The notes under the pieces were generated by a model that was given only the letters and a program-made list of their open reading frames with translations, was not told where the DNA came from and did no database searches. From Ostreococcus lucimarinus (taxonomy: Eukaryota): DNA of 64,000 nt. The DNA lies in assembly GCA_000092065.1 (NCBI GenBank), contig CP000593.1; one strand, written 5' to 3'. This document shows, piece after piece, positions 1,172-7,390 of the stretch. Each line of letters starts with the position of its first letter. Positions within the stretch are counted from its first letter, which is position 1. The position numbers and the translations under genes were made by a program.

Positions 1172-3346
1172 GTGGCCCAGCGCGCGCGCGACCGCGGCGC
1201 GCACACCCCGACGCCGCGGCGACGCGACGACGCGATGGCGAGCGCGCGAGGCGCGACGACGGCGACGCGCTCGCGCGGCGTCGCGACCGCGACGCGCGTC
1301 GCGACGCGACGACGACGCGCGACGCGGGCGAACGCGACGAACGACGCGCGCGATGGGTCGAGCAAAGCGGCGCTCGCGGCGAAGATCGCGGCGCTCAGGG
1401 CGGAGAACGAGGCGATCAAGGCGCGGATGACGACGCGAGGCGCGGAGGGAAGCGGCGCGGCGCGCGAGGGGCGCGGGGGGGGGGTAGCGACGATGCGGGG
1501 GGAGACGAAGGCGGAGGCGAGGACGACGGCGAAGGCGGAGGCGGAGGCGTTCGCGGGCGATCTTCCGAGCGCGTACGAGGGGGAATCGGAATACGGCGCG
1601 AAGGCGAAGGCGGCGGCGGCGAAGAAGGCGATGGGGGGGGAGGAGACGGAGGCGACGACGGCGACGACGGCGACGACGGATACCGCCATGTTCGCGGAGG
1701 CGTTACCGCCGCCGACGACGACGGCGCCGACGACGGCGCGACCGCCGGTGGAGAAGACGGATAATCCGATGCAAATCGTGTTCGTGTCGAGCGAGGTGGC
1801 GCCGTGGTCGAAGACTGGGGGGCTAGCGGACGTGTGCGGTTCTTTGCCGCAGGCGCTCGTCGCGCGCGGGCACCGCGTCATGGTCATCGCGCCCAAGTAT
1901 CAAAACGGCTCAAAGTCGGACGTTTTGTACGAAGGCGCGTTCGATACGTGCGTCAAGGCGAAGCTCGGATGCTTCGGTGGCGAACAAGAGGTGGGTTACT
2001 TTCATCAAATGAAGAACGGCGTCGATTACGTCTTCGTCGATCATCCGTCGTTCCACCGCAAGGGTGGACTGTACGGAGATTCGTACGGCGTGTACGGCGA
2101 CAACCAGTTCAGATTCACTTTGTTGTCCCACGCCGCGTGCGAAGCGCCGCTTCAGTTGCCATTCGCGGAGTGCGGTGGTTATTACGGACAAGACGTCGTC
2201 TTCGTCGCCAACGACTGGCACGCCGGTTTGGTACCGACTTTGGTGGCGTCCAAATACCGTCCTCACGGCGTCTACAAGGATGCGCGCACGATTTGCGCCA
2301 TTCACAACATTTTGCACCAAGGCGCGGAACCGTCGACGACGTTCCCGAACCTCGGCGTGCCGAACGAGTGGTACGGCGCGCTCGAGTACCAGTACCCCGA
2401 GCACATGCGCGCGCACGAACTCGATGAGGGTAGAGTGGTGAACATTTTGAAGGGTGCGATCGCGACGTCCGACCGCGTGTTGACCGTCTCTCAAGGGTAT
2501 GCGTACGAAATCACCACCCCAGAAGGTGGTCAGGGCATGGAAGGTTTGCTCTTGAGTCGCCAAAACCGCTTGGACGGCATCGCGAACGGCATAGACATGG
2601 ATGAGTGGAATCCGGAGGCGGATGCGGATTGTGCGGCGGCCTTTACGGTGACGGACATGTCCGGAAAGCTCGAGTGCAAACGCGCGCTGCAGAAGGAACT
2701 GGGCTTGCCGCAACGTGACGACGTGCCATTGATGGGCTTCATCGGACGTTTGGATTGGCAAAAGGGTCCGGATTTGCTCCAGAACGCGCTCCACGACATG
2801 ATGCGCGAGGACGTCCAGGTGGTGATGCTCGGCAGCGGTTTGCCCGAGCTCGAAGACTTCATGCGTTGGGCCGAGAGCACGTACCCGGACAAGTTCCGCG
2901 GTTGGGTCGGTTTCTCCGTTCCCATGGCGCACCGCATTACCGCTGGTTGCGACATTTTGCTCATGCCTTCGCGCTTCGAGCCGTGTGGCTTGAATCAACT
3001 CTACGCCATGCGTTACGGTACGTTGCCCATCGCGCACGCCACGGGCGGTTTGAAGGACACCATCACCGCGTACAACGCGTTCGGCGACGCCGACAAGGTG
3101 TTGGCGGGCACGGCCGATTACAATCAGGGCGAAGGCGTCGGCACGGGTTGGTTGTTCAAAGACATGAACGCCGATGCTCTGATGTGGGCCGTTCGTTCGG
3201 CGTGCGACGTGTATCGCTCCGAACCGAAGATGTGGCGAGCGATGCAAACGCAAGCGATGACGCAAGATTTGTCCTGGGACAACGCCGCGACAAAGTGGGA
3301 AAAGGTTTTCGAGTGGTCTAAGATCGACCCGCCGCACTGCGGTTAG
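1172..3346 (+). CDS. Soluble starch synthase (GT5 ADP-glucose glucosyltransferase), closest to the SSI type, with an N-terminal transit-peptide-like extension
   Basis: Carries the KTGGLADVCGSLPQALVARGHRVMVIAPKY motif and a C-terminal GT1 half (PSRFEPCGLNQLYAMRYGTLPIAHATGGLKDT). The VCGSLP variant favours SSI over SSII or GBSS. The N-terminal region is rich in R, A and T and has a short coiled-coil. Confidence 0.85.
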   Translation: MAQRARDRGAHTPTPRRRDDAMASARGATTATRSRGVATATRVATRRRRATRANATNDARDGSSKAALAAKIAALRAENEAIKARMTTRGAEGSGAAREGRGGGVATMRGETKAEARTTAKAEAEAFAGDLPSAYEGESEYGAKAKAAAAKKAMGGEETEATTATTATTDTAMFAEALPPPTTTAPTTARPPVEKTDNPMQIVFVSSEVAPWSKTGGLADVCGSLPQALVARGHRVMVIAPKYQNGSKSDVLYEGAFDTCVKAKLGCFGGEQEVGYFHQMKNGVDYVFVDHPSFHRKGGLYGDSYGVYGDNQFRFTLLSHAACEAPLQLPFAECGGYYGQDVVFVANDWHAGLVPTLVASKYRPHGVYKDARTICAIHNILHQGAEPSTTFPNLGVPNEWYGALEYQYPEHMRAHELDEGRVVNILKGAIATSDRVLTVSQGYAYEITTPEGGQGMEGLLLSRQNRLDGIANGIDMDEWNPEADADCAAAFTVTDMSGKLECKRALQKELGLPQRDDVPLMGFIGRLDWQKGPDLLQNALHDMMREDVQVVMLGSGLPELEDFMRWAESTYPDKFRGWVGFSVPMAHRITAGCDILLMPSRFEPCGLNQLYAMRYGTLPIAHATGGLKDTITAYNAFGDADKVLAGTADYNQGEGVGTGWLFKDMNADALMWAVRSACDVYRSEPKMWRAMQTQAMTQDLSWDNAATKWEKVFEWSKIDPPHCG

Positions 3347-3403
3347 ATATCCAATTCAGTTTTACAATATTCATGCCGCTATAAATCAACCTACAGTGTT
3401 CCA

Positions 3404-7200: not shown

Positions 7201-7390
7201 GAACGGCTTTAGCTTCGAAGGGACCGATGAAGGTTCGCTCAACTACGCGCTCGATAGATGCCTCGATGCCTTCTACAACGATCGCGTGTGGTTCCGTTCG
7301 CTTCAAAAGCGTTGCATGCTCCAAGACTGGTCCTGGAACAAGCCCGCGCTCGAGTACGAAGAGTTGTACTTCAAGATGCTCGGGCAATAA
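4229..7390 (+). CDS. Starch synthase III with three N-terminal CBM53 starch-binding modules and a GT5 catalytic domain
   Basis: Carries the [30 protein letters not shown] motif (the KVGGL form typical of SSIII/IV). The three CBM53-like modules include [29 protein letters not shown]. The C-terminal half has [31 protein letters not shown]. The six-frame ORF runs from 3581, but its first 216 codons overlap the Nudix gene on the other strand, so the first non-overlapping in-frame ATG at 4229 (MSEVASPP) is taken as the start. Confidence 0.85.
   Translation: [1053 protein letters not shown]

Follow-up and report, generated by a model that had tools for sequence, protein, structure and literature searches.

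In Ostreococcus tauri, chromosome 13 carries the genes for starch synthase I (SSI, Ot13g01230), the starch synthase III form SSIII-B (Ot13g01250), and the dikinase GWD (α-glucan, water dikinase; SR1-A/SEX1, Ot13g01510) (PMC3056741). The 64,000-nucleotide stretch of Ostreococcus lucimarinus DNA analysed here (contig CP000593.1 of assembly GCA_000092065.1; hereafter the window) contains these three genes in an identical order and with similar spacing, which amounts to two and 26 gene numbers in O. tauri (PMC3056741), although the GWD proteins are only 75% identical (O. tauri XP_022840203.1). Among the entries read, proteins with 100% identity to SSI, SSIII, and GWD of the window stemmed solely from ENA, JGI, and Logan metagenome assemblies. 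The genes, their isoform classes, and the O. tauri chromosome 13 positions are already known, and the adjacency of SSI and SSIII-B in O. tauri as such was not discussed in the literature searched. The addition made here is a small one: the order SSI, antisense NUDIX hydrolase gene, SSIII is ancestral to three genera, it is not the product of a duplication, and the linkage with the dikinase is not conserved.

The two synthases have the same architectures as the plant enzymes, which are a GT5 core alone in SSI and three N-terminal CBM53 modules followed by a GT5 core in SSIII. In contrast to plant SSIII proteins, which have 1100-1500 amino acids, SSIII of the window has 951 amino acids and a much shorter N-terminal arm, and both synthase genes of the window are intronless and compact, unlike the plant genes. 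To our knowledge, SSI and SSIII genes have not been reported as neighbours in plants. The members of the nitrogen-assimilation cluster on Ostreococcus chromosome 10 are contiguous. That cluster also brings genes of the same pathway close together in a Mamiellales genome (PMC2850359). Unlike it, the window has an unrelated antisense gene between the synthases, and its third gene lies 26 genes off at a position that is not conserved.

We consider it probable, at roughly 0.82, that these are ordinary nuclear genes, that the two synthases are ancient paralogues and neighbours by descent in a colinear block of mixed content, and that the proximity of the dikinase is compatible with chance. On this view, the window comes from the Ostreococcus chromosome that corresponds to chromosome 13 of O. 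tauri, and it has nuclear genes for plastidial SSI, SSIII-B, and GWD1. SSI and SSIII-B would have been neighbours, two gene positions apart, by the common ancestor of Bathycoccaceae and Mamiellaceae at the latest, and their adjacency would have been kept by descent inside a block that comprises U-box, RPA, kinase, SAM-domain protein, Ran, SSI, NUDIX, SSIII, and DUF1997 genes, most of them unconnected to starch. Each synthase would be driven by a separate promoter within a divergent pair of genes, and a starch regulon spanning the genome, rather than proximity, would account for the joint day/night expression. The position of the dikinase, 37 kb farther downstream, would be a lineage-specific outcome of intrachromosomal reshuffling, which is compatible with chance.

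Identities of the two synthases and the dikinase

The features of the window on which the argument depends are as follows.

132..991, minus strand: Ran GTPase gene (exon 2 at 132-728, intron at 729-924, exon 1 at 925-991; Pfam Ras, E = 4e-42)
1235..3346, plus strand: SSI (soluble starch synthase I), 703 amino acids, intronless, with the GT5/GT1 core at ~1772-3199
3404..4150, minus strand: CoA diphosphatase-type NUDIX hydrolase (family of AtNUDX11/NUDT7), with the Pfam NUDIX domain in the open reading frame (ORF) 3404-4195
4535..7390, plus strand: SSIII (orthologue of O. tauri SSIII-B), 951 amino acids from its most likely start, with the GT5 group-B catalytic domain at ~6005-7387
4832..4957, plus strand: CBM53 module D1 of SSIII, divergent (PF16760, 21.8 bits, E = 2e-4, under the gathering score)
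5231..5434, plus strand: CBM53 module D2 of SSIII (PF16760, 42 bits)
5723..5911, plus strand: CBM53 module D3 of SSIII (PF16760, 51.5 bits)
7584..8291, plus strand: DUF1997 protein gene (Pfam DUF1997, E = 3e-26)
42346..43446, plus strand: CobW-family GTPase gene (Pfam cobW, E = 1e-50), 5' of GWD
44400..48833, plus strand: GWD1-type α-glucan, water dikinase, with a probable start at ATG 44400 inside the ORF 44256-48833

A first-pass annotation of this DNA had placed three starch enzymes on one stretch, and Pfam domains in all three ORFs bear this out. Identities were read directly from comparisons with protein structures in PDB and with named proteins, and the clade assignments from PDB bit scores, pairwise identity, and named relatives together with the published grouping.

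The ORF 1172-3346 on the plus strand contains Glyco_transf_5 (E = 1e-65) and Glycos_transf_1. Against PDB, the protein scores 710 bits with barley SSI (4hln, E = 2e-212), 365 bits with rice GBSSI, and 230 bits with AtSS4; Escherichia coli GlgA, at 283 bits, ranks above AtSS4. Its NCBIfam match to glgA of the ADP-glucose type reaches 515.6 bits (cut-off 328), and a KTGGL motif (the K-x-G-G-L ADP-glucose motif) is present in the translation. Named relatives are plant 'starch synthase 1' proteins with 54-62% identity. A transit peptide and a low-complexity stretch precede the catalytic core, and ATG 1235 is most likely the start codon. Judged by these matches, the first synthase, annotated initially as SSI-like, is a genuine SSI orthologue of group A, where the choice of SSI over SSII leans on the named matches, the PDB comparison set being one without an SSII reference.

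The second synthase ORF (3581-7390, plus strand) contains CBM53, Glyco_transf_5 (E = 1e-45), and Glycos_transf_1. Here, AtSS4 (6gne) is matched with 386 bits (E = 4e-114) and barley SSI with 152 bits (E = 1.5e-43), while E. coli GlgA scores 197 bits, again above the synthase of the other group. A plant 'starch synthase 3' is 42% identical over 95% of the query, including the CBM53 arm. The segment 3581-4534 (~950 nucleotides) overlaps the antisense NUDIX gene and is a false 5' extension, because the high G+C content keeps the frame open. Two in-frame ATG codons are found at 4229 and 4535. Orthologues are 944-968 amino acids long, and the conserved tryptophan of D1 becomes W108 when translation starts at 4535, compared with W96 in O. 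tauri SSIII-B numbering. Because orthologue lengths and tryptophan numbering agree with it, ATG 4535 is most likely the start, which predicts a protein of 951 amino acids. The distance from the SSI stop codon to the SSIII start is then ~1.19 kb, longer than the previous estimate of less than 1 kb, which would apply (0.88 kb) only if ATG 4229 were used. The small antisense gene noted between the synthases is present as the NUDIX gene. The high G+C content also explains long stop-free frames on both strands. Antisense ORFs at 1910-3337 and 4192-5472 on the minus strand, 426-475 amino acids long, lie within both synthase genes and are not genes.

The N-terminal arm of SSIII consists of a transit peptide and three starch-binding modules of the CBM53 type. 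When scanned one by one against Pfam PF16760 (cut-off 27.6 bits), D2 and D3 were firm, and D1 was divergent. The three CBM53 modules proposed by the first-pass annotation are therefore retained in number, with two above the Pfam cut-off and D1 below it. O. tauri SSIII-B has three starch-binding domains, D1-D3, all of which bind polysaccharides (PMC4625611), and the D1-D3 set of the window agrees with them. By sequence, the second synthase is an SSIII of group B with three tandem N-terminal CBM53 modules.

The ORF 44256-48833 on the plus strand contains two Ig_N_CWD1 domains (CBM45-type), GWD1_pHisD (E = 2e-37), and PPDK_N (E = 5e-25), and the orthologue in Micromonas commoda is annotated as a CBM45 protein. 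These domains identify the predicted product as a GWD1-type dikinase, the orthologue of Ot13g01510.

Conservation of gene order in Mamiellales

Comparison of synteny across Mamiellophyceae, conducted directly on reference genomes and metagenomic contigs, found the SSI-NUDIX-SSIII order in Ostreococcus, Bathycoccus, and Micromonas types. The complete order Ran-SSI-NUDIX (antisense)-SSIII-DUF1997 is present in other Ostreococcus-like contigs with 59% G+C (L001-L004), in a Micromonas-like scaffold with 68% G+C (L007), and, as observed in an SSIII-centred look-up, in two more Micromonas-like lineages with 72% and 58% G+C (L014 and L015). The reference genome of M. commoda RCC299 has the same order (CP001327.1, 931,686-954,481; L016). 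In Bathycoccus-like contigs with 44-45% G+C (L009-L011), the order is kept through SSIII, and a peptidase M1 gene replaces DUF1997. The Bathycoccus prasinos protein CAL6326428.1 (1765 amino acids) is a fused gene model, in which residues 22-699 correspond to SSI and residues 862-1765 to SSIII. Because this model fuses both synthases, their genes must be adjacent and co-oriented in B. prasinos; the model itself is presumably an annotation artefact, spliced across the antisense NUDIX gene.

When metagenomes were scanned with an alignment of SSIII sequences, 80 loci were obtained. Both SSI and the antisense NUDIX gene were in place at every one of the ~28 loci that had at least 53% identity to SSIII of the window and enough upstream sequence, and the G+C contents of these loci span 0.44-0.68. 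An upstream SSI or NUDIX gene was absent from all loci with 47% SSIII identity or less, even where 8-10 kb of flank was available (L083, L085, and L094); these SSIII-like loci are paralogues or belong to other algae. At a compact SSI locus from outside Mamiellales, no SSIII was found within 6-10 kb. The Mantoniella-like contigs (L012/L013 and L005/L006) have Ran-SSI-NUDIX, with no SSIII-like sequence in their last 2.5-3 kb, Micromonas queries included. The SSIII-less ends lie at 13106-16128 of L012 and 12987-15478 of L005, in Mantoniella antarctica-like contigs and a sister lineage. The NUDIX-SSIII spacer of Micromonas loci measures 1.9-2.3 kb. The Mantoniella-like ends point either to a spacer made longer by inserted genes or to a broken adjacency.

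The conserved order extends beyond the synthases. On the 5' side of Ran, the genes for U-box, RPA, kinase, and SAM-domain proteins are colinear between Ostreococcus-like and Micromonas-like loci. On the 3' side, DUF1997 directly follows SSIII on the same strand in Ostreococcus-, B. prasinos-, and Micromonas-type loci, and it closes the block that the genera have in common. Outside the window, its gene is found at the following positions.

L016, 13137-13844: DUF1997 gene
L047, ~7962-8711: DUF1997 gene

DUF1997 is a plastid/cyanobacterial family of unknown function. The SSI-NUDIX-SSIII order must be at least as old as the last ancestor shared by Ostreococcus, Bathycoccus, and Micromonas. Mamiellales chromosomes are on record as colinear (PMC3491373), and the block of the window is the same in kind, merely including two genes of one pathway.

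The dikinase does not share this history, and the initial proposal to count it as a part of the arrangement did not hold. In M. commoda, GWD is on the same chromosome at ~591.7-596.1 kb, where it is oppositely oriented and separated from SSIII by ~345 kb. In Micromonas pusilla CCMP1545, the two orthologues occupy different scaffolds, SSIII one of 1,532,348 bp and GWD one of 1,106,798 bp. A cobW gene lies 5' of GWD both in the window and in M. commoda (cobW at 4924-6069 and GWD at 10001-14413 of L017). Because cobW accompanies it, GWD belongs to a small conserved block of its own, which has shifted with respect to the synthases. In both species, cobW and GWD are separated by a minus-strand gene or ORF. 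These direct comparisons indicate that the linkage of GWD with the synthases is confined to Ostreococcus and is not conserved.

Chance, regulation, and selection

The chance expectation was obtained directly by permutation, in which 43 starch-related O. tauri genes (PMC3056741), or a core set of 32, were placed at random in ~8000 slots on 20 chromosomes. At least one pair separated by no more than one gene appeared in 22% of the trials with 32 genes and in 36% of those with 43 genes, and at least one trio inside 28 gene positions appeared in 14-31%. After merging same-family neighbours (BAM-BAM and DPE-DPE), the probability of a single close pair was ~0.20. The first-pass annotation had regarded the grouping as unusual, eukaryotic pathway genes being normally dispersed; with a pair expected in 20-36% of random placements and a trio in 14-31%, it is not. 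The case for clustering is weaker still because the initial scan might have flagged any pathway. The clustering of the synthases with the dikinase is no more than chance allows. Where a genome is very gene-dense and has 30-43 genes for starch, chance alone should be expected to make neighbours of genes from the same pathway, which calls for caution with similar finds.

Several points weigh against descent and chance as a sufficient account. In the permutation, gene-ID numbers stood in for positions, and the sizes of the chromosomes were approximate. Among the 32 core genes of O. tauri, unmerged, nine pairs lie within 30 positions, whereas 3.6 are expected (P ~0.015); after merging, there are seven, compared with 3.2 expected (P ~0.04), at this one threshold only. 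The adjacency is intact in more than 10 lineages, and breakpoints fall just beyond the block (past DUF1997 in Micromonas types, past SSIII in Bathycoccus-like contigs with 44-45% G+C), a pattern that selection could also explain.

A general tendency of O. tauri starch genes to cluster was considered and rejected, as the excess depends on the chromosome 13 trio: when the trio was removed, the excess of close pairs was gone, and proximity at other thresholds was unremarkable. After same-family merging, the close starch pairs of O. tauri taken jointly do not show clustering significantly above random. Besides the chromosome 13 genes, the close pairs in O. tauri include FBA/pullulanase (Ot01g03020/03030), two beta-amylases (Ot03g03170/03190), two DPE models (Ot11g02290/02300), SBEI/GWD (Ot04g04110/04170), and GBSSI/SSIII-C (Ot06g03200/03410) (PMC3056741).

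Among the alternatives, the one that survives best is a selected mini-cluster, in which two amylopectin-elongating synthases, perhaps with NUDIX and DUF1997, would be kept together by a shared chromatin or clock-phase domain that coordinates how they are transcribed. It might work in a manner analogous to that proposed for the nitrate-assimilation cluster of Ostreococcus, and the nitrogen assimilation genes on chromosome 10 offer a precedent within the genus (PMC2850359). The adjacency is kept at all examined Mamiellales SSIII-B loci with enough upstream sequence, in three genera, and the O. tauri transcripts of SSI and SSIII-B co-vary over a light/dark cycle in published arrays (PMC3056741). 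However, SSIII-A (chromosome 16), SBEII (chromosome 3), and ISA1 (chromosome 14), none of them linked to the pair, show the same profile, and the GWD transcript has a distinct 12-h rhythm (PMC3056741). Because unlinked starch genes share the profile, the co-expression of SSI and SSIII-B appears to be a property of a dispersed regulon.

The promoter arrangement also speaks against a mini-cluster. Ran and SSI diverge from a 243-bp interval, SSI converges on NUDIX with 58 bp between the stop codons, and NUDIX and SSIII diverge from ~380 bp. SSI and SSIII therefore have no common promoter, as they belong to the separate divergent pairs Ran/SSI and NUDIX/SSIII with the antisense CoA-diphosphatase gene between them, and neither a bidirectional promoter nor a polycistron fits two genes on the same strand that are interrupted in this way. 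A search for a shared conserved cis-element in the upstream regions of SSI and SSIII at four Ostreococcus-type loci yielded only CG-rich low-complexity k-mers. The local co-regulation suggested by the first-pass annotation is not supported.

Further evidence against selection comes from the gene content. The unrelated neighbours Ran, NUDIX, and DUF1997 and the upstream genes are retained equally well. No SSIII was found within 6-10 kb at the compact non-Mamiellales SSI locus or in the 2.5-3 kb past NUDIX in the two Mantoniella-like lineages, the SSIII-like loci at 47% identity or less lack an upstream SSI, and such a pair would arise by chance in a substantial share of genomes (20-36%). Metabolic gene clusters have at least three non-homologous genes of one pathway that adjoin or almost adjoin each other, whereas only two starch genes are close here, and they are homologous. 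Such clusters also exceed chance and are conserved for all members, whereas P is 0.14-0.36 here and the position of GWD is not kept. We regard a selected mini-cluster as unlikely. Its wider form, in which the whole Ran-SSI-NUDIX-SSIII-DUF1997 block would be held by selection in Mamiellales, for example as one chromatin or clock-phase domain for both synthases, seems slightly less likely still. If it were true, the block would count as a rare eukaryotic mini-cluster for starch, conserved since ancient times, and the DUF1997 plastid-type protein might be an unrecognised partner. Conserved adjacency within a colinear block is not in itself evidence of a functional cluster. We infer that the adjacency is not under selection and that the two synthases are regulated via independent promoters; the residual possibility of selection is small.

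Pure coincidence, that is, a recent accident in one species without deep history, would draw on the same high chance expectation, but it conflicts with an arrangement common to the Ostreococcus, Bathycoccus, and Micromonas lineages, and we consider it improbable. The first-pass annotation had linked chance adjacency to two findings, namely GT5 domains in different ancient clades and unconserved synteny. The domains do fall into different ancient clades, whereas the synteny is conserved.

The least tenable alternative, to which we assign almost no weight, is a tandem duplication, in which a local copy would have diverged and gained CBM53 modules: the synthases, both of CAZy family GT5, share a strand and are separated by ~1.2 kb, but they are only 29% identical (over 536 residues, with 19% gaps), each has a higher PDB bit score with bacterial glycogen synthase than with the group of the other, and both have closer relatives in land plants (54-62% for SSI and 42% over the full length for SS3). 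SSI and SSIII are not each other's closest paralogues, as tandem duplicates would be. GBSSI, SSI, and SSII (group A) and SSIII and SSIV (group B) descend from two independent types of glycogen synthase, the split between groups A and B is older than green algae, and the Ostreococcus set comprises three SSIII genes but lacks SSIV (PMC2576272). On sequence grounds, SSI and SSIII-B are ancient paralogues of two deep starch/glycogen synthase lineages, not local duplicates. The ancient tandem arrangement proposed initially is thus ancient, its order being kept across three genera, and it did not arise by tandem duplication.

Neighbouring genes and other features of the window

The window has a G+C content of ~60%, and its genes are tightly packed and mostly intronless. 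A single intron of ~196 nucleotides was found in Ran (ORF 132-1076, minus strand), with GT...AG ends directly after the GDGGTG codons; the exon structure was deduced from two reading frames and the GT/AG sites. The remaining genes examined have no introns. No match to a structured-RNA family was obtained in an Rfam scan of positions 1-9000.

The best PDB matches of the NUDIX protein include Nudix hydrolase 11 (AtNUDX11, 9nxm, E = 6e-28), NUDT7 (E = 4e-18), and the CoA pyrophosphatase of Deinococcus radiodurans. Its score with the NCBIfam CoA pyrophosphatase model PRK10707 is 122 bits (cut-off 134). An ADP-glucose pyrophosphatase (AspP/AtNUDX14), which would have linked this gene to starch, was considered and rejected, as the best matches are CoA diphosphatases.

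The interval between SSIII and GWD holds ~12 recognisable genes, none of them related to starch by Pfam. The families are DUF1997, WD40, DEAD helicase, RING, PAN-domain protein, ACBP-ankyrin, ABC1 kinase, lipase, Upf1-like helicase, VTT, SBF, and cobW. At 23204-29644 on the minus strand, an ORF of 2146 amino acids contains four PAN domains and a bacterial-surface Ig-like domain, with no tie to starch. Downstream of GWD, a minus-strand gene at 51052-54021 encodes a protein of 989 amino acids in which a dethiobiotin-synthetase-like AAA_26 domain is joined to a class-III aminotransferase and which may be a fused biotin synthesis enzyme of the BIO3-BIO1 type. It adjoins a gene at 49046-50938 on the minus strand, which encodes an FAD-binding reductase fused to cytochrome b5.

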